This document shows positions 17,040 to 28,488 of a stretch of 30,378 bases of DNA, in pieces. The stretch lies in the NCBI GenBank assembly GCA_945861145.1, contig CAMATL010000013.1, positions 1 through 30,378 on the forward strand, given 5' to 3'. Every line of letters starts with the position of its first letter. Position 1 is the first letter of the stretch. The stretch comes from a candidate division TM6 bacterium GW2011_GWF2_37_49 (GTDB lineage Bacteria > Babelota > Babeliae > Babelales > RVW-14). The notes below the pieces were generated by a model. That model made no database searches, was not told the DNA's origin, and was given only the letters and a program-made list of their open reading frames with translations. A program made the translations under genes and the position numbers.

Positions 17040-19130
17040 ATGAGAGCAATCAGTCATTGGTTTGGCACCAATAAATTACGTGCATTATTTATAAGCACGG
17101 TGTTCATTAAACTGTTTTTTATCATTTTGTTTTGTTCCGAATTTGTTCCAAAATTCTTCCTCCCCTTTGTTGACCACTTTGTTAATAACTGGGGAGATCC
17201 TTGGCAACATTTTTGGCGACAAGGCAACGGCATAGAATTTCCTTACAACCCATTGATGTTGTATATTTTGGCCATTTTTGTAAAATTCGGCCAATTACTA
17301 CATGCCCCTGTTTTTTTAACTGAAATATTGCTCAAATTACCCATTCTTGCCGCTGACTGTCTTCTTACTTATCTCATGCTGCGATCCTGTAGAGGTAAAG
17401 CGCTTGAAACACTCTTCTTTCTCTCTTTTTCACCAATATTAATCTACGCCTCGTTTATGCATACTCAACTGGATATCATTCCCACAGCATTACTGTTTTT
17501 AGCCATCTATCTGATTCGATTTCAGCCGTCACGTATCGCTGGTGGTATTTTTGGCAACACGCTTGTCGCTGGTAGTGTGTTTGGCGCCGCGCTTGCTACC
17601 AAGCTTCATGTTGCGGCTGCAGGTCCACTCCTAGCAATCTATCTTTGGAAAAATAAAGGCTGGCGCATCGGACTACTATTCACAACTATGGCCACAACCG
17701 TTTATGCCTTTTTTATAACACCTTTTTTATTCTCAGAAGGGTTTTATCGCATGGTACTTACCCATCCAAAGCAAATGATGGTATTTGATGTATTTGCTCA
17801 ACTGGGACAATTAAAAATACTCGTCCCTGTATTTTCTTTAATGGTTTTATATGGTCGTTTTTTGACCTATAAAAAAATCAACCTTGACCTACTCGAAAGC
17901 TTTTTAGCAATCACTTTTGCCACACTCGTATTTTTTATTATTCCTGCGCCAGCATGGTATGTGTGGATGCTACCATTTATTGCATTGCTTTTCATACGCA
18001 ATTACCAACAAAACAGCCTCTTAGTCTTTCTGTACCTTGCGCTCAATGTTAGTTATCTGATTTTTTTTGTTTTCTTTTATCGTGAAGCGGGCATGCAAGA
18101 TTTGCTGCTTTTCGGGCAATCACTTAACTTCAAAATCCACCATGAAAAATTAGCTAATCTTTCTTTTACCTTGCTCGAAAGTATCTTATTTCTTGTCATC
18201 TATTTTGTTTATAAAGCAGGCATCAAAAGTAATGAGCTCTACGCGCGCCAACAAAATTTGGTTATAGGCATCAGTGGAGATAGTGGCACTGGGAAGAGCA
18301 CGCTCATGAAACAATTTATCGAAATTTTTAACGTCAAGGCAACTCTTATTGAAGGTGATGGAGATCACCGATGGGAGCGAGGCGATACACATTGGCAAGA
18401 AATTACTCACCTCAATCCTAAAGCAAATTTTTTGCATCGGCAGGCAGAACACATACTGCTTTTAAAAAATCACCAACCCGCGTGGCGCACCAACTATAAT
18501 CACCACACTGGCAAATTTGATGCCCCGCAAAAAATAGAACCTACTGACTTTATTCTTCTCAGCGGCTTACACCCGCTCTACTTACCAAAGATGCGCAAAC
18601 TTATAGACGTTAAAATTTATCTTGATCCTCAAGAAAAGATCAAACGACACTGGAAAATTACACGTGATATGCGCGAACGCGGTCACAGCAAAGACCATAT
18701 CTTAGAACAAATGGACCGCCGCACAAATGACATTAAAAAATATATTGATCCTCAAAAAGAATTTGCTGACATCATAATTCATTATTTTACTACTGATGAC
18801 TTTGAAGTAGGCTTTACTCAAGCACAATTCGCAAAACAGCTCAAAATTACCTTTGATTCCAGTATTAAAATTGAGCCTCTCTTGCAAATACTTATTCAGG
18901 CCCAGGTCAATACAGAATGGAATTATGCTGATGATTTACGCACTCAGGAATTAATTTTAGATAAGCCTTTAGATGCTCAAATTTTATGCCAACTACACAC
19001 CGATTTATTACCAAATATTGAAGAGCTCTTAGCAAGCAAGCTTGAGTGGCTTGACGGATACGATGGATTTGTGCAATTTATTTGCTTAATGGTTGTTAGT
19101 GAAAAAATGAAGGAGCGTCATGCAAGCTAA
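17040..19130 (+). CDS. Fusion protein: N-terminal polytopic membrane domain (~420 aa, unknown family) + C-terminal phosphoribulokinase/uridine-kinase family P-loop kinase
   Basis: C-terminal domain carries IGISGDSGTGKSTL, YNHHTGKFD, LLSGLHPLY, DVKIYLD...WKITRDMRERGHS and YIDPQKEFADIII, which are strong PRK-family signatures. The N-terminal half is uniformly hydrophobic. Confidence 0.75.
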   Translation: MRAISHWFGTNKLRALFISTVFIKLFFIILFCSEFVPKFFLPFVDHFVNNWGDPWQHFWRQGNGIEFPYNPLMLYILAIFVKFGQLLHAPVFLTEILLKLPILAADCLLTYLMLRSCRGKALETLFFLSFSPILIYASFMHTQLDIIPTALLFLAIYLIRFQPSRIAGGIFGNTLVAGSVFGAALATKLHVAAAGPLLAIYLWKNKGWRIGLLFTTMATTVYAFFITPFLFSEGFYRMVLTHPKQMMVFDVFAQLGQLKILVPVFSLMVLYGRFLTYKKINLDLLESFLAITFATLVFFIIPAPAWYVWMLPFIALLFIRNYQQNSLLVFLYLALNVSYLIFFVFFYREAGMQDLLLFGQSLNFKIHHEKLANLSFTLLESILFLVIYFVYKAGIKSNELYARQQNLVIGISGDSGTGKSTLMKQFIEIFNVKATLIEGDGDHRWERGDTHWQEITHLNPKANFLHRQAEHILLLKNHQPAWRTNYNHHTGKFDAPQKIEPTDFILLSGLHPLYLPKMRKLIDVKIYLDPQEKIKRHWKITRDMRERGHSKDHILEQMDRRTNDIKKYIDPQKEFADIIIHYFTTDDFEVGFTQAQFAKQLKITFDSSIKIEPLLQILIQAQVNTEWNYADDLRTQELILDKPLDAQILCQLHTDLLPNIEELLASKLEWLDGYDGFVQFICLMVVSEKMKERHAS

Positions 19131-19830
19131 TCACAATCGACGCATTATTAAGGGCTTGCTTTTCGATCTTGATAACACATTGTATCATTATAATCCTGCT
19201 CATGAAGCTGGACTCAGTGCTGTTTTTAAAACACTCAGTCAACAAGTAACTCAATCTCCAGCAGAATTATCTACCGTTTACGAGCAGGCAAAGCAACAGG
19301 TTAAACACCGACTTCATAGTACCGCAGCTTCTCATCATCGACTACTATATCTTCAAGCTATGCTTGAACTGCTTGGGCTTTTCTCTCCCACCCTTACCCA
19401 AGATCTTTACAACCATTACTGGAATGCATTTTTTGCAGCCATGCAACCAATTACAGGGATGAGTGAAACCCTGCATAGATTAGCAAAAAGCTATAGTATC
19501 GGAATAGTAACTAATTTTGTTGCAGACATTCAGTATCGAAAACTTGAACAACTCGGTATTGCAAACCTCATAAGCCATCTCGTCACAAGCGAAGAAATAG
19601 GCTGCGAAAAACCTGATCCAAGAGTCTTTTTTGCCGCTTGTAAAAAAATGCAGCTACAAGCAGATGAGGTATGCATGATCGGTGACGATCTAGAGATTGA
19701 TATAATTCCTGCACAACATTTAGGCATGGAAACTTATTGGCTGGTCCCACAAACCAGTACTACAAAACAAGAGCATTCATTGTTTAAAACATGTTCGACC
19801 TTCTATGACATCGAAGAGAGATTACAATGA
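19120..19830 (+). CDS. HAD-superfamily hydrolase (subfamily IA-like phosphatase)
   Basis: Motif I FDLDNTLY, motif II IGIVTNF and motif IV GDDLEIDI. Overlaps the upstream gene by 11 bp. Confidence 0.8.
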   Translation: MQANHNRRIIKGLLFDLDNTLYHYNPAHEAGLSAVFKTLSQQVTQSPAELSTVYEQAKQQVKHRLHSTAASHHRLLYLQAMLELLGLFSPTLTQDLYNHYWNAFFAAMQPITGMSETLHRLAKSYSIGIVTNFVADIQYRKLEQLGIANLISHLVTSEEIGCEKPDPRVFFAACKKMQLQADEVCMIGDDLEIDIIPAQHLGMETYWLVPQTSTTKQEHSLFKTCSTFYDIEERLQ

Positions 19831-20924
19831 CAACAATCTTAGACCTTATTGAACTTTCAAAATGGGCCGGCCAACGCTTTGACCTCGTGCAAGCTGGCGG
19901 GGGTAACTCATCATTTAAAACTGATGATAACCAAATGTTTATTAAAGCATCTGGCATTAGTTTAAGCGAAGTAAGCACATCAAATGGTTTTGTTACCGTT
20001 GATTTAGTCCCCTTGCGCAAAGGGCTTACAAAGCTACACAAACAACAAGAAACCCTTGATAAAAAAGCGCTCGAAGCTGCTGCAGAAGAACTTCTAGCTA
20101 AAGTAAAAACAGCAACCAACGTCGCTCGCCCATCAATCGAGACCTTTTTACATGCTTATCTTGAGACCTATGCTATGCACACTCACGGCATTGTAGTTAA
20201 CACAATTGCTTGTCGTAAAAATTGGCGCGAAACTTTTGAGCAAATTTTCCCCGAGAGCCTCTGTGTTTCCTATAAAACACCAGGCATTGAGCTCGCGCTT
20301 GAACTCGACCTACAAGTCAGCGCCTACATCAAAGAAAAAGGCAAGAAACCAAGTATTATTTTTTTACAAAATCACGGGCTCATTGTCAGCGCACCAACAG
20401 CGGCTGAAGTTAAATTTTTGACCGAAGAAGTTACGATTAAACTCGAACAATTTCTTAATATCACCAACAATACGTACCGCTTAACATCAGTGATTTCGGA
20501 AAACATACACAACGTATTTGGCGCCAGCAAGGTTTCCTACCTTTCTAACGACGCAGGCCTACGCGAGCTAATTATTAATGCAAAGCCTTTATTTTTCCAA
20601 CGACCATTTACCCCTGACACACTCGTGTATTGCGGCGTGCGCCTGCTCGTCCTCAATGATTTTGACGATGCAGACACACTAACTAAATATAAAGAAAATT
20701 TCACAGAAATTCCTCGTGTTATTATTTGCCGCGATCTGATATTTTTCATTGCAGATTCAGTACGCAAAGCACGCGAGATCGAAGAAGTACTGAAATTTCA
20801 CCTTGCAGTACTTGTGATTAATGTCACCCAAAATATTCAACCACAAGACATTCAATTCTTGGAAGAAGAAGAGCTTAATTATTTAGCCAAATGGGATGCT
20901 GAAAAGTACCGTCAGGCAGTTTAA
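19827..20924 (+). CDS. Class II aldolase/adducin-family domain protein (ribulose-5-P 4-epimerase / MtnB-dehydratase-like N-terminal domain) + C-terminal domain of unknown function
   Basis: AGGGNSSFK (substrate-phosphate-binding GN-S motif), the HTHG metal-ligand pair and the NHGLIVSA motif. ATGA overlap with the HAD gene. Confidence 0.65.
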   Translation: MTTILDLIELSKWAGQRFDLVQAGGGNSSFKTDDNQMFIKASGISLSEVSTSNGFVTVDLVPLRKGLTKLHKQQETLDKKALEAAAEELLAKVKTATNVARPSIETFLHAYLETYAMHTHGIVVNTIACRKNWRETFEQIFPESLCVSYKTPGIELALELDLQVSAYIKEKGKKPSIIFLQNHGLIVSAPTAAEVKFLTEEVTIKLEQFLNITNNTYRLTSVISENIHNVFGASKVSYLSNDAGLRELIINAKPLFFQRPFTPDTLVYCGVRLLVLNDFDDADTLTKYKENFTEIPRVIICRDLIFFIADSVRKAREIEEVLKFHLAVLVINVTQNIQPQDIQFLEEEELNYLAKWDAEKYRQAV

Positions 20925-20926
20925 AT

Positions 20927-20969
20927 AAAAAGAGAGATCCCTGGCCCTTGCCAGGGATCTCTCTTTTTA
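20927..20969 (+). terminator. Strong rho-independent terminator, bidirectional in form (A-tract, 14-bp perfect stem, T-tract)
   Basis: aaaAGAGAGATCCCTGGcccttgCCAGGGATCTCTCTttttt. Confidence 0.85.
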
Positions 20970-20987
20970 AGTCGAAAGAAAACCCAC

Positions 20988-22697
20988 ATGCACATCATTA
21001 TCCCAATGTCTGGCGTAGGCGCACGATTTCAAGCCGCAGGATACAAAGACCCCAAGCCTCTTATCTTGGTAGATGGCAAACCAATTATTGAGCATGTGGT
21101 TAATCTTTTTCCAGGCGAAACAAAATTCACCTTCATCTGCAATGAAGAGCATTTACAAACCACCGCAATGCGTGAAATCTTACAACGCATTGCTCCCTTA
21201 AGCTCCATTGCAAGCATCCCTCCACACAAGTTAGGCCCCGTATTTGCAACACTGCAAATGCAAGATTTAATCGATGACCAAGAAGAAGTAATCGTTAATT
21301 ATTGCGATTTTGGCACCTACTGGGATTACCAAGATTTTTTAAGCCACACGCGCAATCGCGCCGCCGCCGGAGCTATTCCAGCCTATCGAGGTTTTCATCC
21401 CCACATGCTTGGTACCACTAACTACGCATTTATTAAAGATTCAAATCAATGGCTAGAAGCCATTAAAGAAAAAGAACCTTGGACCAATAATCGCCTGCAA
21501 GAATATGCCTCCAATGGCACCTATTATTTCGCACGCGGCAGCTACGTAAAAAAATATTTTGAACAGGCAATCAAGCGCAATTTAAGCATCCCCGGTGCGA
21601 CCGGTGCGAATGGCGAATTTTATGTAAGCCTTGTGTACAACCTCATGGTTGAAGACAAATTACCAGTCTCAATCTACGAAATTCAGCATATGCTGCAGTG
21701 GGGAACCCCGCAAGATTTACGCGAATACGAAGCCTGGTCTGGCTATTTTCGCCAGCTTGTGGAAAAACCAAGCATCTCTCAATCTGTTGAACAGCGGAGC
21801 GTTAACCTTATCCCGCTCGCAGGGCGCGGCAAACGATTTGCTGACGAAGGCTACACTACACCAAAGCCTTTAATTCCAGTCAGCGGTAAGCCCATGATTG
21901 TACAAGCAGCGGCAGCACTGCCACGAGCAGAACAGCAAATATTTGTGTGTTTACAAGATCATTTAAATACCGCCCCGCTTAAACAAGCACTTAAGCAGGC
22001 CTACCCTCATGCATCGGTGATTGGTATCAATGCCGTCACAGAAGGGCAAGCTTGTACGTGCGCCATTGGATTGAATAATGTTGCCCCTGAAGCACCTGTT
22101 ACTATTGGCGCTTGTGACAACAGCATGCTTTTCGATAGAAAAAAGTATGAGGCTTTGCGCGATCGCGCTGATGTCGATGCCATCATATGGACATTTAAAA
22201 ATCATCCTTCTGCAAAAACTAATCCACAAATGTACGGGTGGGTTATCACTGATGATCAAAATAAGGCCGTAGGCGTTTCAGTAAAAAAAGCAATCTCATC
22301 TACGCCTGAAAAAGACCATGCCATTGTTGGTGCTTTTTATTTTAAAAAAGCAGCTCATTTCACGGCAGGACTTGAATCACTCTATAAAAACAATATTCGC
22401 ATAAATAATGAATTTTATGTCGACAGCCTCTGCGGAGAGCTGATCAAACTCGGGCTCAATGTTTATGTCTTTGAAGTTGATTTTTATGTGTGCTGGGGAA
22501 TCCCAAACGATTTACGCACCTTCAATTACTGGCAAAGCTTTTTCCATAAGTGTTCATGGCACCCCTACTCAATCAGCAAGGATCATATGGTTGCAGCTGA
22601 GGCTCAACAAAAGCTCATTGAGGAAGCAACAACATTTGCACAATCATGTGACTCTTTTTATAGTTCGCAATCAAACGATTTAGCAAAAACGATTTAG
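20988..22697 (+). CDS. Protein with two tandem sugar-phosphate nucleotidyltransferase (NTP_transferase/GxGxR-type) domains
   Basis: Each half begins with the nucleotidyltransferase signature: IIPMSGVGARF...PKPLILVDGKPIIEHV and LIPLAGRGKRF...PKPLIPVSGKPMIVQA. Confidence 0.7.
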   Translation: MHIIIPMSGVGARFQAAGYKDPKPLILVDGKPIIEHVVNLFPGETKFTFICNEEHLQTTAMREILQRIAPLSSIASIPPHKLGPVFATLQMQDLIDDQEEVIVNYCDFGTYWDYQDFLSHTRNRAAAGAIPAYRGFHPHMLGTTNYAFIKDSNQWLEAIKEKEPWTNNRLQEYASNGTYYFARGSYVKKYFEQAIKRNLSIPGATGANGEFYVSLVYNLMVEDKLPVSIYEIQHMLQWGTPQDLREYEAWSGYFRQLVEKPSISQSVEQRSVNLIPLAGRGKRFADEGYTTPKPLIPVSGKPMIVQAAAALPRAEQQIFVCLQDHLNTAPLKQALKQAYPHASVIGINAVTEGQACTCAIGLNNVAPEAPVTIGACDNSMLFDRKKYEALRDRADVDAIIWTFKNHPSAKTNPQMYGWVITDDQNKAVGVSVKKAISSTPEKDHAIVGAFYFKKAAHFTAGLESLYKNNIRINNEFYVDSLCGELIKLGLNVYVFEVDFYVCWGIPNDLRTFNYWQSFFHKCSWHPYSISKDHMVAAEAQQKLIEEATTFAQSCDSFYSSQSNDLAKTI

Positions 22698-22756
22698 CCG
22701 CTACCAAGACAGCTTGAATATTTAAACCTACCTGCACTCAAAAGCCCTGGCAATTC

Positions 22757-22785
22757 TTGACAACAGCTATAAACCCGCGCTAAAT
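22757..22785 (+). promoter_or_regulatory. Sigma70-type promoter of cassette copy 1 (TTGACA, 17-bp spacer, CTAAAT); 48-nt leader conserved with copy 2
   Basis: ttgacaacagctataaacccgcgctaaat. Paralogous block at 25674..25702. Confidence 0.55.
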
Positions 22786-22833
22786 TTCGCCCAGTTAGTC
22801 ATTTATTGCTGATTCCTATTTGAAAGGGCTATC

Positions 22834-23199
22834 ATGGATTTAATTATGAGATGTAATAAGTGCAACAGAGAGGTTCATTTTGCTGAATTTATGGGGTATG
22901 CAACAGGATATTTGCTTGAAAAAATTGGTCCTATGTTATTAGAGGCGACCGTTAAGGCCCTTATTGCATGTCTTACAGCCACAGCAGAAAAATCCTCACC
23001 AAATGCACCTACAGAAATCACCTTACAAACCAGAGGGGTGGTAGATAATACAATGGCTGGTATAGCTCTTTACTTTAAAATTGCCTGCCCTGATTGCAAA
23101 CAATGCTGCTGGCAAGCAGCTTCTACACCTAACGTAGAAATTCAAAAAAAGGCCATACCAAAGAGTCCCCAAAAAAAAGAAGTCTCTACTTCAACTTAA
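22834..23199 (+). CDS. Small cytoplasmic CxxC...CPDC (zinc-ribbon-like) protein with Lys/Ser/Thr-rich C-terminal tail; family A, copy 1
   Basis: MDLIMRCNKCNREVHFAEFMGYA...IACPDCKQCCW...KKAIPKSPQKKEVSTST. Paralogous to 25751..26095. Confidence 0.6.
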   Translation: MDLIMRCNKCNREVHFAEFMGYATGYLLEKIGPMLLEATVKALIACLTATAEKSSPNAPTEITLQTRGVVDNTMAGIALYFKIACPDCKQCCWQAASTPNVEIQKKAIPKSPQKKEVSTST

Positions 23200-23237
23200 T
23201 TTGAAAATTAATTATAAATCGAAGAAAGGGGAGTGTA

Positions 23238-23759
23238 ATGAATGTTTATCAAATTATGTTTATTAGCATACTTGTAGTATCAACACCGCTGATTGCATGG
23301 GACAACAAGGATGTCAATCAAGAATTAGAAATTTCTTGCAATGCTGATTTAACTTCACTTCTCAATGAAAACATCTCCAAATTCACTGTCATGGCTGTTA
23401 AAGCTAACTCGGTGGTAGTTTTTTTTGATGAAAAATTCAATGGCAACCCAGAATTAATTTGTACAAACTGCAGCAGAAGACTTTCTTATGCTGAATTTTT
23501 TGGTGTTATTGGAGCCATGACACTACAAAAAGTGCTAACAAGTAGCGATAAGTTTGAAGTTGTCATCTCTTTTTTTGACTCATTTACTAAGTTACTTGAA
23601 GCAGAAAATTTGGCCGTAATTGCAGCTTTCATGCTGGAATCAATTAAAAAAAAAGATGATCTGAGGAGCTATCCATGCCCAGATTGCAAGAAAAGTAACT
23701 CATGGATTTATGCCCCATATGAATCAGAAGTCAACGCAAAAATCAAAGCCCAGGCATAA
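23238..23759 (+). CDS. Secreted CxxC...CPDC protein; family B, copy 1, distantly related to family A
   Basis: Signal peptide MNVYQIMFISILVVSTPLIA. Core CTNCSRRLSYAEFFG...YPCPDCKKSNSW. RBS aaaggggag. Paralogous to 26134..26670. Confidence 0.6.
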   Translation: MNVYQIMFISILVVSTPLIAWDNKDVNQELEISCNADLTSLLNENISKFTVMAVKANSVVVFFDEKFNGNPELICTNCSRRLSYAEFFGVIGAMTLQKVLTSSDKFEVVISFFDSFTKLLEAENLAVIAAFMLESIKKKDDLRSYPCPDCKKSNSWIYAPYESEVNAKIKAQA

Positions 23760-23787
23760 CTGCTAAAAAAATCTACCACTCACTTTG

Positions 23788-24023
23788 TTGAAGTTGATTT
23801 TTATGTGTGTTGGGGAATCCCAAACGATTTACGCACATTCAATTACTGGCAAAGCTTTTTCCATAAATGTTCATGGCACCCCTACTCAATCAACAAGGAT
23901 GATATGATTGCAGCTGAGGCTCAACAAAAGCTCATTGAGGAAGCAACAACATTTGCACAATCATGTGACTCTTTTTTTACTTCTCAGTTGAGTAAAAAAA
24001 AGGTGACTGAATTATGCAAATAA
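23788..24023 (+). pseudogene. Duplicated 3' fragment of the nucleotidyltransferase gene (~97% identity to 22471..22659). It has no ATG (the listed ORF 23805..24023 starts at a GTG) and preserves a different, probably ancestral, C-terminus overlapping the GNAT start
   Basis: 6 mismatches over about 190 bp against 22471..22659. Homology fades over the next ~13 bp in both copies. In-frame remnant reads ...VCWGIPNDLRTFNYWQSFFHKCSWHPYSI... Confidence 0.75.
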
Positions 24024-24514
24024 GATCACTAACTCAAAAAGATTGGTTAATTTGGAAGAAAATTCGATTAGAAGCTCTAAAAGATTCGCCCGAAAATTTT
24101 GGATCCGCTCATGAAGAAGAATCAAATTGGAAAGGTTCAGATTTTCGAAATAGCTTACAAAAAAACAATATCTTTGGAGCCTTCATTAACCATGAACTTA
24201 TAGCTTGCGCTGGATTTTATAAAATGAATTCACTCAAAACAAAACATCGAGGTGTTATTTGGGGGGTATATACACAGCCTGAACACAGATTGAAAGGCGC
24301 ATCCAACAGCTTAATTGAAGCTATTATTATTCATGCCAAAGAACATGTAATACAAATACATTTAACTTGTGTAACAACAAATCTTGGCGCAATTAAGCTT
24401 TATCAAAAACATGGTTTTTTAATTTATGGAACTGAACCTCGCTCGCTCAAAATTGATGATATATTTTTTGACGAACACTTGATGATTTTTGTATTTAACA
24501 AAGATTCGCAATAA
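24014..24514 (+). CDS. GNAT-family N-acetyltransferase
   Basis: Acetyl-CoA-binding motif HRLKGASNSLIEAII in a 166-aa protein. RBS aaggtga upstream. Confidence 0.75.
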   Translation: MQIRSLTQKDWLIWKKIRLEALKDSPENFGSAHEEESNWKGSDFRNSLQKNNIFGAFINHELIACAGFYKMNSLKTKHRGVIWGVYTQPEHRLKGASNSLIEAIIIHAKEHVIQIHLTCVTTNLGAIKLYQKHGFLIYGTEPRSLKIDDIFFDEHLMIFVFNKDSQ

Positions 24515-24559
24515 TCAAACTATACTCTTCATGGTTGAAAAACAGGATTTTGGTGGATC

Positions 24560-24627
24560 CCGGCTCGCAGGCCGGGATGACAGGAGAGGAATGACCTTCT
24601 ACATTGTCATCCCGCCCTGCGAGCCGG
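24560..24627. repeat. GC-rich 23-bp inverted repeat (22/23 match) with a 22-nt spacer, between convergent genes; REP/MITE-like palindrome or bidirectional terminator
   Basis: CCGGCTCGCAGGCCGGGATGACA ... TGTCATCCCGCCCTGCGAGCCGG. Each arm also carries an internal CCGG...CCGG mini-palindrome. Confidence 0.6.
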
Positions 24628-24708
24628 AATACATTCTTGATATAAAAAAGTCAGTATTTTCAAGAGGGTTGAGTATAATATCAATATTTACTCCAGAATT
24701 CACTTACA

Positions 24709-25599
24709 TCATCCCTCGCGCTTGTAATCGGCAAGTACTTCATCAATAACTCGCCAAGATTTTTCTATCTCAAGGCTATTGGTGCCAGGCAGTGCAGCAC
24801 ATACGATTAAAGCCTTCCACAGGGCCCATCCTCGCCCACGCGCCCAAGTGGCACTATCGAGTGGCAGTGCTGCTCGAAATACATCTCGGCTCTCCCCTTT
24901 GAATAATGTCCAAGCAATCACCAAATCACAAGCAGGGTCGCCGACACCAGAACAACCAAAATCAATGACGGCGCTCAACGCGCCATTTTCAACTAATAGA
25001 TTCCCGACAGCAACATCCCCGTGAAACCAGACAGGAAAGCCTTGCCAGGAGGACTCAAGAGCTTTATCCCATACGGCAGTGACCGCGGCAACATCAATCG
25101 CATCGGCAAGAATCGCGAGCGATTGTCTTATTTCAGCATCATAAATTAACAGTGGCCCGCCACAGCGAGAAAAATTATGTGGTCCTCCGGTAGAGTCGAT
25201 TCGCTGCAGAGCAACTAAAAATTCGGCCAAGGCGGTGGCAAATTGCCACAGGTCAGCAATCCGCTCGATCGACACCGTTTCGCCATCAAGCCACTTATAA
25301 ATAGACCAATGCCATGGATACCCTTGGGCAGGCTTACCCATAGCCAAAGGAACAGGAATCGGGAGAGGCAGAAGTGGAGCCAATTTTGGCAACCAACAAT
25401 GTTCTTTTTCCACCGACGAAACATACTCCTCAGCACTCGGTAGCCGAACTGTCATCTGCTCACCGAGATGAAAAGTTCTGTTGTCCCATCCGCCAAACTC
25501 AACCGGCTTAACCGGAAGGTCAGCCCATTGCGGAAATTGCACGGCAACAAGGCGGCGAACAAGAGCGGCATCAATATGAATTTTGTCTGTGTTTGGCAT
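24709..25599 (-). CDS. APH-fold small-molecule kinase (aminoglycoside/choline/sugar phosphotransferase family), compositionally foreign
   Basis: Contains the catalytic HGDVAVGNLLV and IDFGCSGVGDPACDL motifs. Sampled stretches are 48-57% GC against about 36-40% for neighbouring genes. Amino-acid composition is Ala/Leu/Trp/Gly-rich, typical of a high-GC donor. Confidence 0.75.
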   Translation of the reverse strand: MPNTDKIHIDAALVRRLVAVQFPQWADLPVKPVEFGGWDNRTFHLGEQMTVRLPSAEEYVSSVEKEHCWLPKLAPLLPLPIPVPLAMGKPAQGYPWHWSIYKWLDGETVSIERIADLWQFATALAEFLVALQRIDSTGGPHNFSRCGGPLLIYDAEIRQSLAILADAIDVAAVTAVWDKALESSWQGFPVWFHGDVAVGNLLVENGALSAVIDFGCSGVGDPACDLVIAWTLFKGESRDVFRAALPLDSATWARGRGWALWKALIVCAALPGTNSLEIEKSWRVIDEVLADYKREG

Positions 25600-25673
25600 A
25601 ATTATTTCCTATCAAAAATTTGCATTAGCACTGCAAGCCTCACATCCCTAAGTCTTAACAACCCTCAGGGGCC

Positions 25674-25702
25674 TTGACAATAGCTAGAAATCCGCGTTAA
25701 AT
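25674..25702 (+). promoter_or_regulatory. Sigma70-type promoter of cassette copy 2 (TTGACA, 17-bp spacer, TTAAAT)
   Basis: ttgacaatagctagaaatccgcgttaaat, with the same 48-nt distance to the ATG as copy 1. Confidence 0.55.
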
Positions 25703-25750
25703 TTCGCCCAGTTAGTCATTTATTGATGGTTCCTCAGCGAAAGGATTATC

Positions 25751-26095
25751 ATGGATTTACGAATACGATGTAATAATTGTGAGCGAGAAATGCACTTTTT
25801 TGAATTTATGGGGTATGCAGAAGTGTATTTGGTGACTGCTATTGGAGCAGTTTTAGCACCTTTTGCACTAAAAAAACTCGTTGATTATCTTGCAACACCA
25901 ATAACTACACCTCCAACAAAGGGGCTAATTGATATGCCAATGGCCACATTCGCTCGTCAATTTTTTATTAAATGCCCAGATTGTGGTGAATGTTTTTGGC
26001 AACCAGCTTCTGAACCTAAAACAACTACAATATTTCTGAAAAAAAAGGCCACACCAAAAAGTACCAAAAAGAAGGAAGTTACCACTTCAGTTTAA
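25751..26095 (+). CDS. Small cytoplasmic CxxC...CPDC protein with Lys/Ser/Thr-rich tail; family A, copy 2
   Basis: MDLRIRCNNCEREMHFFEFMGYA...IKCPDCGECFW...KKKATPKSTKKKEVTTSV. About 45% identical to 22834..23199. Confidence 0.6.
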   Translation: MDLRIRCNNCEREMHFFEFMGYAEVYLVTAIGAVLAPFALKKLVDYLATPITTPPTKGLIDMPMATFARQFFIKCPDCGECFWQPASEPKTTTIFLKKKATPKSTKKKEVTTSV

Positions 26096-26133
26096 TTTTA
26101 AAATTAATTAAAAATCGGAGAAAGGAGGATGTA

Positions 26134-26670
26134 ATGAAGCTCTTTAAAATCATATTCTTTATCTTGCTCATGATACCATCATCATCATCAGCAGGATCGG
26201 CTAAAAACACAACCTCCAAGAAACCGTTGGTTTATTCCGCAGAGAAAACACCACCCATCTTCCATAGCAACACCTTCAGCTATCTTGCTATGATTCTAAC
26301 AATGGCCCAAATTACAACTCCTTACATAGAAAAACACGGCGTCCACCCTAGATTAACATGCACAGGCTGTGACAAAATGCTTTCACACATGGAGTTTTTT
26401 ACTGAAGCACAAAGTACGATTTTACTTAAAATAATGTTAGGCACTGATGAAATCGAGATCTTTAAGTCTTTTATAAATAAATTTGCTGAATTACTCATAG
26501 CAGAAAATTACGATGCAATCGCAGCATTCATGATAGAATCACTTCAAAATAAAGATATTATCTCTCGGCCTTGCCCAAGCTGTAATAAAAATGCCTGGGT
26601 TTATAAGCCTGGCGATTTAAATCCAGGTACCAATACAAAAGACCATCCTATTCAACATACTGCCACATAA
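26134..26670 (+). CDS. Secreted CxxC...CPSC protein; family B, copy 2
   Basis: Signal peptide MKLFKIIFFILLMIPSSSSA. Core CTGCDKMLSHMEFF...AENYDAIAAFMIESL...RPCPSCNKNAW. About 45% identical to 23238..23759 over the core. Confidence 0.6.
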   Translation: MKLFKIIFFILLMIPSSSSAGSAKNTTSKKPLVYSAEKTPPIFHSNTFSYLAMILTMAQITTPYIEKHGVHPRLTCTGCDKMLSHMEFFTEAQSTILLKIMLGTDEIEIFKSFINKFAELLIAENYDAIAAFMIESLQNKDIISRPCPSCNKNAWVYKPGDLNPGTNTKDHPIQHTAT

Positions 26671-26676
26671 AAAAAT

Positions 26677-27396
26677 TTATCGCTCATTCTGCTGCGGCAA
26701 TTTTTTACGCAAGCTAGCCGAATAGCTCATCGTCCTCGCAATTAATTTCCAGCGAGCTTTTAAGCCTGAATTCCATGAAGATGAGCCGAATTGGCGAGGC
26801 CCAAATGAGACTTGAAAACGAATCAATTTAAGACCAAGCTTTTTTGCCATGTAACAGGCGTACAAATCAAGCGAAAAATCATGTGGCGGGTTTTTCCACT
26901 GCTCAAAAAAACTACGATGAAATATATTTGGCTGGGCATTTATATCCCAGAGAGGCGTCTGCAAATACAGTGTTTCAAACGCGCTCATACCCACGGTAAA
27001 AAACTGATCAAAAATAGGCCGCCCCGCGCGAGCGCCCTTCACAAATAATTTTTCAGATACTGAGCTTTTAGCGATAATGTCATACGCACGAACCACGTCT
27101 CTTGGATCTGCTTGCAGGTCTGCATGCGTCCAACCAAGCAGCTCTCCCGTTGCCACACGCAGCCCACTCAAAATTCCAAAACCGTAACCCTGATTTTTTT
27201 CAACGCGAGTAGTTTTTGCAAACTCGTAACGAGGAAGTAAAGCGGCAAGCACTGCGGCAGTCTCATCAAACGAACCATTATCTACAAGCATCACTTCAAT
27301 ATCTCGATCACCAATAACATCGGCAAAACGATCAAGTAAAAAGGGGATACTTTTTGATTCATTGTAACAAGGCACAATAATTGATAACTTCTTCAT
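26677..27396 (-). CDS. GT2-family glycosyltransferase (dolichyl/polyprenyl-phosphate sugar synthase-like), soluble form
   Basis: LSIIVPCYNE...VMLVDNGSFD...(DxD region) GWTHADLQADP, the N-terminal GT-A fold signatures. GGGAG RBS upstream. Confidence 0.75.
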   Translation of the reverse strand: MKKLSIIVPCYNESKSIPFLLDRFADVIGDRDIEVMLVDNGSFDETAAVLAALLPRYEFAKTTRVEKNQGYGFGILSGLRVATGELLGWTHADLQADPRDVVRAYDIIAKSSVSEKLFVKGARAGRPIFDQFFTVGMSAFETLYLQTPLWDINAQPNIFHRSFFEQWKNPPHDFSLDLYACYMAKKLGLKLIRFQVSFGPRQFGSSSWNSGLKARWKLIARTMSYSASLRKKLPQQNER

Positions 27397-27432
27397 TTAC
27401 TCTACTCCCATTCCCTTTGCAAGGATGCACAC

Positions 27433-28488
27433 ATGCACACAACGACTGTTAAAAAAACATTACTCAAAGCTTGGCTTACATTCTCAGATTTTTTCTACAA
27501 AACAGTTGAAGCGCTGCCTTCAACTGTTTTTTCGCTGGTAGCAACACTACCAATCCTTATTTTCTGGTTATTGATGGTGTATAAAAAACCGATTAACCAC
27601 TTGCCAGCAATTTTTTATCAAGATCAACTAATACAAACGGCTAGCTCGTGGTTCAACCTACCACAAGATCCTACCTCACTGCCAGCAAGTTTTTTGATTT
27701 TTGGGTTACACACAATCAACATCAGTCTTTTTCTATATCTAGCACGCCCCTACCTTTCCAAATTAATGTTGCTCTGGGCGTGCTGGTATATTGGCATCCA
27801 CCCCAGTCATCAATTATGGCTCGGCAAGCTTGAATATTTACCCTACCTGCTTGAATGCATGATGGTCTTGATTACAATCATTTCGATAAAAAAAACCTCC
27901 GCTACAAATGCAATACCACTCAAACGTTTTTTCATTATAGCTCTTATGTTGGGCCTCTGGTTACCCATCAATATCTGGTTTGGCGCTGCATGCGCCACGT
28001 TGGCTGCTGCTTATTTTTGGCCTCTACCGACAACGCAACTAACAATACTTATGAGCAGCTACGCAATTGCACAACTTATTACAATCGTGCAAGGCTTTAC
28101 TATCAATGCAACAGCAATTTTTTTAAACTTACGGCAGACCTTGGTAGCCCTTTTTGGCCTAGGCTGGATTCCAAGCTCTCAACAATGGCTACGTTACTGT
28201 TTTCTTATTTTTTGGGCAGCAAGCTTAATTGGTCTTTTCCTACATACAACTAAGCGTCGCCAAGCAGGACTACTCTTGCTAGCCATTACTGCATACCTAG
28301 TACCGCAAATTTTCATAAAAATGCATCCTGCGTATGTCTACATAGCACTGCCAGCATTCATTACCTCACTTGGTCTGCTTTATGAAAACACGGGCGAAGC
28401 TGATATGCGCAGCGTTATAAAAAGCCTTATCATCCCAATCTACGCCTCTTTTTTATTTAACGTAGTCATGATTTTATTTTGGGCGTAG
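27433..28488 (+). CDS. Polytopic integral membrane protein (351 aa), unknown family; candidate flippase or GT-C-type partner
   Basis: Hydrophobic throughout (about 9-10 helices). AAGGA upstream. Start codon is only 36 bp from the divergent GT2 start. Confidence 0.5.
   Translation: MHTTTVKKTLLKAWLTFSDFFYKTVEALPSTVFSLVATLPILIFWLLMVYKKPINHLPAIFYQDQLIQTASSWFNLPQDPTSLPASFLIFGLHTINISLFLYLARPYLSKLMLLWACWYIGIHPSHQLWLGKLEYLPYLLECMMVLITIISIKKTSATNAIPLKRFFIIALMLGLWLPINIWFGAACATLAAAYFWPLPTTQLTILMSSYAIAQLITIVQGFTINATAIFLNLRQTLVALFGLGWIPSSQQWLRYCFLIFWAASLIGLFLHTTKRRQAGLLLLAITAYLVPQIFIKMHPAYVYIALPAFITSLGLLYENTGEADMRSVIKSLIIPIYASFLFNVVMILFWA

Follow-up and report, generated by a model that had tools for sequence, protein, structure and literature searches.

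Evidence for an operon family of Dependentiae that pairs a non-exported protein with a Sec-signal paralogue

Why would a bacterium encode, side by side and in two copies, a small protein with no apparent export signal and a larger, apparently exported protein that carries the same cysteine motifs? This question is raised by a stretch of 30,378 nucleotides (positions 1 to 30,378 of contig CAMATL010000013.1, assembly GCA_945861145.1; hereafter, the window) from the candidate division TM6 bacterium GW2011_GWF2_37_49, in which an initial annotation had noticed two diverged copies of a two-gene cassette. We here call the genes small1 and large1 in cassette 1 and small2 and large2 in cassette 2. The cassettes are very probably two old copies of a promoter-equipped bicistronic operon, found so far in Dependentiae only, which encodes a non-exported protein and its paralogue with a Sec signal, both containing one undescribed domain. 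What the two proteins would do together is a more tentative matter, to which we come after the evidence for the family itself.

One domain in two paired proteins

The open reading frames (ORFs) of the window include two homologous cassettes on the forward strand, each with a small gene and then a large gene (Table 1), and a six-frame scan of the window with the family hidden Markov models (HMMs) found exactly these four members and no fifth one. All four ORFs lie where the initial annotation had put them, the sequence motifs that it quoted were all found in the window proteins, and the similarity between the copies is far above chance, with BLASTP E values of 5e-35 for small1/small2 and 8e-31 for large1/large2. 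Some of its figures, nonetheless, need correction: the identity given as ~45% for both pairs is 47–52% for the small pair and 32–33% for the large pair, the gap of 35 nt between small and large is 38 nt in both cassettes, and the copies called orthologous are paralogues inside one genome. At the DNA level, the cassettes are direct repeats in register, with 80% identity between 22756-22914 and 25673-25831 and further blocks of 75% (23144-23285 and 26040-26181) and 73% (23568-23657 and 26467-26556).

The proposal that all four proteins form one family, duplicated twice, also holds. The spacing from CxxC to EF is the same in all four, the second Cys residue being located 8 residues before the Glu (C10–E18 in both small proteins, C78–E86 in large1, and C79–E87 in large2). 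When only the window sequences were compared, ~28 residues of the small and large proteins were aligned with an hhalign probability of 85% (BLASTP E 9e-5); between the small family (13 sequences) and the large family (25 sequences), the alignment covered 93 columns including both Cys knuckles, with a probability of 97.6% and an E value of 3e-12. Furthermore, the small and large HMMs each match proteins of the opposite type, at E values from 6e-9 to 4e-3.

The predicted folds agree with this relationship. In the AlphaFold model of small1, strands at residues 4–7 and 13–15 are followed by helices at 16–31, 36–52, and 64–80, a strand at 93–95, and a disordered tail; the mean predicted local distance difference test score (pLDDT) is 75, with 80–91 over residues 1–50 and 71–100 and below 50 in the tail (residues 104–121). 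In that of large2, a signal region, a low-confidence linker, and a helix at 46–68 come before strands at 73–76 and 82–84, helices at 85–101, 107–123, and 126–138, and a strand at 155–157, and the pLDDT over residues 51–160 averages 71–87 per 10-residue block. The order of the predicted elements is the same in the two models, namely a CxxC hairpin, three helices, CPxC, and a strand, and the large type (as modelled in large2) has an extra helix before the domain, which the small type (small1) lacks. On the basis of the profiles and the agreeing predicted topologies, therefore, we regard the small and large proteins as true homologues with one domain, which is modelled as a zinc ribbon (CxxC...CPxC-x4-5-W) split by a three-helix bundle (~60–90 residues).

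The four window proteins and the small family have CxxC and CPxC without exception, and the four Cys residues are likewise invariant in the 25 large-type sequences; an altered second knuckle is seen in two relatives outside those alignments (CNSVSC in L011 and CPES in L090). The knuckle starts are 63–88 residues apart, with the three helices in between. Besides the four Cys residues, a Trp and hydrophobic positions are invariant in the alignments, in which no conserved catalytic-looking residues are found. Because no polar or catalytic residue beyond the four Cys is conserved, we read the domain as a binding module and not as an enzyme.

Outside the window, an exhaustive HMMER search over 1.84 billion representative proteins returned 39 proteins at E ≤ 1e-3, 10 of them at E ≤ 1e-10, and a further search returned 34 small-type clusters; all of these relatives come from metagenomes or metagenome-assembled genomes (MAGs), and none has a functional name. 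A word-indexed protein search with large1 alone found only large1 itself, and with the large-family alignment, three proteins; with five close small members as the query, a scan of genome contigs found no relative, and that of metagenome contigs found only the L009 contig. Small-type proteins are 86–137 aa long, have the first knuckle inside the first 12 residues, and follow the consensus M(K/R)CxxCxREMxxxEFxGYAEAYLLK ... TRGxxDxxMAGxANxFxIxCPxC...W, and large-type proteins are 127–220 aa long with a hydrophobic N-terminus. Three proteins of 269–308 aa are tandem two-domain versions.

The initial annotation had recognized no Pfam family in these proteins, and indeed, no match at or above a curated threshold was obtained in Pfam, NCBIfam, PHROGs, or PADLOC, every hit being below the cut-off; nor did the solved structures give any sequence-profile or fold match. 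The best sub-threshold hits in Pfam, NCBIfam, and the PDB are zinc-ribbon knuckles.

Every family member that could be traced is, as judged from sequence, a member of Dependentiae (TM6). The MAGs that contain P0042 and P0043 are labelled Candidatus Babeliales and Candidatus Dependentiae, respectively. The histidyl-tRNA synthetase (HisRS) of the window is 82% identical to that of a groundwater MAG, the next-best matches are 48–55% and mostly from Dependentiae/TM6, and named other phyla reach ≤39%. The HisRS encoded at L090 is closest to those of TM6 MAGs and yet only 57% identical to that of the window; together with the MAG labels, this argues that the family spans deep branches of one phylum. 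We therefore consider it well supported that this is a real, previously undescribed, and phylum-restricted domain family with a predicted fold that has no solved counterpart.

The arrangement of the two genes is strict: a small gene is followed by a large gene 25–41 nt away in all eight further places with enough DNA, as it is twice in the window (Table 1). Across the operon family, the predicted product of gene 1 is ~90–140 aa long, and that of gene 2 is ~130–220 aa long with a variable N-terminal extension. Indeed, the downstream ORFs at L011 and L090, which had not been used in model building, match the large HMM at E values of 1e-19 and 6e-27. The neighbours are mostly housekeeping genes and, because they differ between loci, the pair is regarded as self-contained.

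Two side observations on these loci may be added. The more distant L011/L012 pair lies on contigs of the two samples that also yielded the contig of the window, with a similar GC content (0.41) and a tetranucleotide correlation of 0.95, and may belong to the same genome. Also, a gene of the APH/choline-kinase family adjoins a cassette in the window (24709-25599, reverse strand), in L007 (8543-9430), and at the unrelated P0032 locus, which may be either a coincidence or a recurrent neighbour.

Table 1. Cassette features in the window and small-large pairs at other loci
Feature	Coordinates	Strand	Description
small1	22834..23199	+	121 aa, cytoplasmic-type; ORF; small-family HMM E 4.9e-39
small1, parts			CxxC residues 7-10; three helices; CPDC 85-88; W93; disordered Lys/Ser/Thr tail
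large1	23238..23759	+	173 aa, Sec-like N-terminus; ORF; large-family HMM E 5.5e-47
large1, parts			domain Cys 75, 78, 147, 150; W156; hydrophobic N-terminal 12-mer, KD 2.42
small2	25751..26095	+	114 aa, cytoplasmic-type; ORF; HMM E 3.6e-42
large2	26134..26670	+	178 aa; ORF; HMM E 5.5e-45
large2, parts			putative signal peptide MKLFKIIFFILLMIPSSSSA (rule-based); Cys 76, 79, 147, 150
Cassette 1 promoter-like site	22757..22786	+	TTGACA, 18 nt, TAAATT; consensus scan, 10/12 matches
Cassette 2 promoter-like site	25674..25703	+	TTGACA, 18 nt, TAAATT; aligns with the cassette 1 site
Cassette 1 5' leader	22787..22833	+	TTCGCCCAG box and GAAAGG Shine-Dalgarno sequence
small1-large1 spacer	23200..23237	+	38 nt; GGGGAG Shine-Dalgarno sequence for large1
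Repeat, left copy	22471..22669	+	3' portion of the gene for the 569-aa double nucleotidyltransferase; brackets cassette 1
Repeat, right copy	23788..24023	+	nucleotidyltransferase 3'-end remnant; ORF 23805-24023; stop overlaps the GNAT start at 24014
L010			small-large pair, 41-nt gap
L011/L012	6001-6936		pair, 137 aa + 164 aa, 28-nt gap; adjoins gyrB (MerR also near)
L013/L014			pair, 25-nt gap; flanked by alaS-like and glyS-like genes
P0032 locus			two pairs, 101+170 aa and 136+307 aa; gltX/UDG nearby
P0027 locus			pair, 89+308 aa
L087/L088			small gene, then frameshifted large gene
L090			pair, 31-nt gap; adjoins hisS, secA, bamA

Promoter, age, and decay of the cassettes

Each cassette appears to have a conserved sigma-70-like promoter. 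L007, L009, and L010, with far-diverged coding regions, retain the same TTGACA-18 nt-TAAATT sequence and the leader. Between cassettes 1 and 2, the promoter and leader are 80–93% identical, with synonymous sites near or at saturation, so that their conservation is well above that of synonymous sites. The identity is 75–85% from the 3' end of the small gene through the spacer and just 33–50% in the stretch of the large gene that encodes the signal peptide and the N-terminal extension. No supported structure was obtained with RNAalifold in the leader and spacer, for which the consensus energies were −4.8 and −2.6 kcal/mol and the covariation terms were penalties. As a separate observation, the 9-mer TTCGCCCAG, located at 22786-22794 and 25703-25711 in the window, is also present in L013 (1236-1244), where it is 31 nt upstream of the small gene at a distant Babeliales locus; this recurrence may be due to chance (roughly 2–5%) or reflect a shared start-site or operator element.

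By the Nei-Gojobori method, the nonsynonymous (dN) and synonymous (dS) distances are 0.41 and 0.97 between small1 and small2 (dN/dS ~0.4) and 0.63 and ~2, the latter saturated, between large1 and large2 (dN/dS ~0.3). Since dS is near or at saturation and dN/dS is 0.3–0.4, the rapid diversification that had been proposed gives way to an old duplication with purifying selection on both genes. The split between the small and large types would be far older than the duplication of the cassette because both types are paired in distant Dependentiae. Between the window and L007, which has cassette 2 only, omega is 0.14 for small2 and ~1 for large2.

In L009, a large1-type gene, small2, and large2 are arranged in tandem. 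Its large-type gene at 1701-2186 is a hybrid, the N-terminal two-thirds of which resemble large2 and the C-terminal third the large1-type gene 500 nt upstream; the sequences point to recombination or gene conversion between paralogues. Frameshifts at homopolymer runs are seen at 1310-1670 of the same contig, and on this account the A7-A9 and T7 runs of the small genes might be suspected of phase variation, though such runs are expected from Lys codons in an AT-rich genome.

A possible cytoplasmic partner and its alternatives

The initial annotation had assigned one secreted and one cytoplasmic protein to each cassette, and this division stands under rule-based inspection, the large proteins having Sec-like N-termini and the small proteins having none. 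A hydrophobic 12-mer with Kyte–Doolittle (KD) hydropathy ≥1.5 is present in the first 35 residues of 27 of the 29 large-type representatives, most of which begin with MK; the two exceptions are P0028, a 5'-truncated gene call, and P0047. Small types, by contrast, start straight with the knuckle. We also considered the large proteins as lipoproteins, given that a Cys residue near the signal end is frequent, and rejected this because a proper lipobox is found in few members and in none of the window proteins.

The segment between the knuckles is more hydrophobic in the small type, with a median maximum KD19 of 1.63 vs 1.05 in the large type (Mann–Whitney p 4e-5). A transmembrane small protein was nonetheless rejected: KD19 is just 1.54 and 1.66 in the window proteins, helix 1 is charged, the residues after the segment are strongly positive, in conflict with an N-in orientation, and AlphaFold confidently joins both knuckles. 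Peripheral binding of the small protein to the membrane is possible. The higher hydrophobicity, together with the lack of a preceding helix, suggests that the small protein has an exposed hydrophobic surface in need of a partner, either a protein or the membrane.

A mechanism can be put forward from these features. In the cytoplasm, the small protein would hold a zinc ion through its Cys4 clasp and, through its hydrophobic surface, would contact either the precursor of the large protein or the inner face of the membrane; it might so hold or tune the large protein prior to Sec export. In the exported large protein, the same four Cys residues would more likely form two disulfides; indeed, structural disulfides fit the large proteins better than an obligatory metal site because the second knuckle varies, as in L011 and L090. 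Once exported, the large protein would have a binding role, be it periplasmic, at the surface, or directed at the protist host. Such a partnership in the cytoplasm between the small paralogue and the exported one is, judged from sequences and models, possible and rather doubtful. The operon described above combined with this partner mechanism is our best explanation of the locus as a whole, and we hold it tentatively, at somewhat less than an even chance.

Several points weigh against this explanation. The contact between the small and large proteins is conjectural, the signal peptides were judged by simple rules only, and the AlphaFold models are predictions built from shallow alignments (9 and 13 sequences). 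Dedicated cytoplasmic partners of Sec substrates are, moreover, unusual. Two intact large genes are present in L009, in which one small gene (small1) is deleted and small2 has two frameshifts, suggesting that the small protein is not strictly needed in cis, though a small copy might be present elsewhere as the contig is 3.7 kb long. In L007/L008 (9582-10489, two samples), ATG has changed to ATA in both genes and CGA to TGA in the small gene, and L087/L088 (4771-5426) have a common frameshift in the large gene. These disabling changes are common to independent samples and hit the small or the large gene depending on the lineage; together with those in L009, the start losses, premature stop, and frameshifts argue that the module is dispensable in some lineages.

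The broadest form of the partner explanation would be a two-compartment module specific to Dependentiae, in which a new Cys4-clasped helical domain is zinc-bound inside and disulfide-bonded outside, the two proteins being either a pre-export partner and its cargo or two halves, one inside and one outside, of a device in the envelope or at the host interface. We know of no such arrangement that has been described and consider this form unlikely.

As the main rival, the small protein could be a nucleic-acid-binding autoregulator like Com of phage Mu; it would bind the promoter, the leader, or the intergenic RNA and thereby control the exported cargo. Zinc-ribbon knuckles, the Lys-rich disordered tails of the window small proteins, and the first position of the putative regulator gene in the operon would all suit such a role, as would the 75–93% identity of promoter/leader and spacer between the cassettes despite dS near or at saturation; P0042 even carries the label “phage FluMu protein Com” in IMG. 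The matches to Pfam Zn_ribbon_Com (PF10122), however, are obtained with 4 of the 13 small members and none of the window proteins, span one knuckle, and are far under the gathering score (best E 0.0094). Basicity of the tail is inconsistent, with net acidic tails in P0042, P0052, and P0053, and the leader and spacer lack a conserved RNA structure, as described above. Given also that a regulator would have no evident reason to share its whole domain with an exported protein, we see only a small chance that this rival is right.

Alternatively, both proteins might be host-directed factors of an intracellular parasite of protists, with the large one leaving via Sec and a further step and the small one otherwise, its Lys-rich tail resembling a nuclear-localisation signal. 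Dependentiae do live as obligate intracellular parasites and have a very large number of signal-peptide ORFans (PMC6561590), the family is expanded, the mature N-terminus of the large protein is highly variable, and clusters such as KKKATPKSTKKKE are found in the tails. Against this, the small protein has no known secretion signal or system, several members have acidic tails, there is no eukaryote-like domain, and no evidence of positive selection was found between the two cassette copies; this role is hence quite improbable.

Slightly less probable still is that the exported proteins are substrates or accessories of the adjoining glycosylation machinery. The initial annotation had placed the cassettes inside a glycosylation island, and sugar-related genes are indeed present in the window, where the cassettes lie between a double nucleotidyltransferase, glycosyltransferase family 2 (GT2) genes, and the gene of a 351-aa polytopic membrane protein. 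The cassette genes of L009 and L010 also follow the nucleotidyltransferase gene, an epimerase gene is downstream in L090, and Ser, Thr, and Pro are abundant in the mature N-terminus of large2. The island does not extend to the family, however: the pairs elsewhere are beside gyrB, alaS/glyS-like, hisS/secA/bamA, and gltX genes, with no sugar genes near at the gyrB/MerR, alaS/glyS-like, and gltX/UDG loci. L009 and L010 are of the window's own lineage and so are not independent, and a glycosylation substrate leaves the small cytoplasmic paralogue without a role.

The least favoured of the three ideas in the initial annotation (substrates, chaperone/effector pairs, and toxin/immunity pairs) is that the large protein is an exported toxin or bacteriocin and the small one its cytoplasmic immunity protein, duplicated and diversified by conflict, which is very unlikely: a two-gene module with duplicates and tandem-domain versions, the variable N-terminal region of the large protein, and the large2 omega of ~1 between strains might speak for it, but immunity to an exported toxin normally sits at the toxin's site of action and is normally not a paralogue of the toxin, L009, in which both large genes but neither of the small genes are intact, would poison itself unless a copy is present elsewhere, a lone pair lies amid housekeeping genes in one widespread member of Dependentiae (L090), PADLOC and PHROGs gave no match, and catalytic-looking residues are not conserved.

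Surroundings and significance

Returning to the cassettes as an operon in two old copies, we note that a 199-nt direct repeat with 95% identity (22471-22669 and 23788-23986), whose right copy retains the original stop, flanks cassette 1 and records recombination that took place long after the two cassettes had diverged. A fragment with the end of the nucleotidyltransferase gene plus cassette 1 may have been inserted by a single crossover, or a GNAT-APH block may have been inserted between formerly adjacent cassettes, as in L009; the repeat is consistent with either. The convergent GNAT and APH genes are separated by a GC-rich inverted repeat (24554-24633) whose arms are 29 nt long; it occurs once in the window and folds at −57.5 kcal/mol (z −8). 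In an Rfam search over 22000-27500, this hairpin alone was matched, by spurious miRNA models, and a bidirectional terminator or a small palindromic element is the probable interpretation. Upstream of the cassettes, an operon-like run (17040-22697) encodes a 696-aa protein of the phosphoribulokinase/uridine-kinase family, a HAD phosphatase, a class II aldolase-like protein, and the 569-aa double nucleotidyltransferase, and possibly forms a pathway that handles an unusual activated sugar; L007, a related contig, lacks the entire block. The aldolase-like and nucleotidyltransferase genes have between them a perfect inverted repeat (20 nt, with a loop of 4 nt; 20926-20969), probably a terminator or attenuator within this sugar operon.

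How do the paired proteins compare with known systems? In Chromulinavorax destructans, a cultured member of Dependentiae, 44% of coding sequences have signal peptides, and this set is enriched in ORFans (PMC6561590). The large proteins resemble those ORFans in the phylum, the Sec-type signal, the lack of a recognisable domain, and a presumed role in the envelope or in host interaction, but the exported protein is here preceded by a cytoplasmic paralogue, and the family is common to distant Dependentiae and hence not a true orphan. With zinc-ribbon small proteins such as phage Mu Com, YacG, and RNA polymerase subunit P/Rpo12, the likeness is in the CxxC and CPxC knuckles and the predicted beta-hairpins that pack together; the knuckles of those proteins are separated by a short loop, whereas they are here 63–88 residues apart around a three-helix bundle, and one paralogue is here exported to where a Cys4 zinc site is unlikely. 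Two further systems are analogous in design only. EsxA/EsxB (WXG100) are likewise adjacent small helical paralogues, expected in equal amounts and working as a pair, but they have a WXG motif and no Cys clasp, are both type VII-secreted, and belong to Actinobacteria/Firmicutes, none of which is seen here. LptC/LptA are also adjacent paralogues, one at the inner membrane and the other with a signal peptide, but they have a beta-jellyroll fold, serve lipopolysaccharide transport, and have no similarity to the present proteins in sequence or fold.

In conclusion, what we describe is a well-supported new domain of unknown function, a variant on the zinc-ribbon theme, and not a mechanistic discovery. 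Dependentiae are a widespread phylum of obligate protist parasites, almost wholly uncultured, and much of their exported proteome is unannotated. One such exported family is now defined by two profiles, a predicted fold without a solved counterpart, and a strict operon rule in which the cytoplasmic protein comes first and the exported one second. If the models are right, the family would provide a natural case in which a single Cys4 fold owes its stability to zinc on the inner side of a membrane and to disulfides on the outer side, and if the small protein is truly a dedicated partner of a Sec substrate, it would represent an unusual mode of export control.

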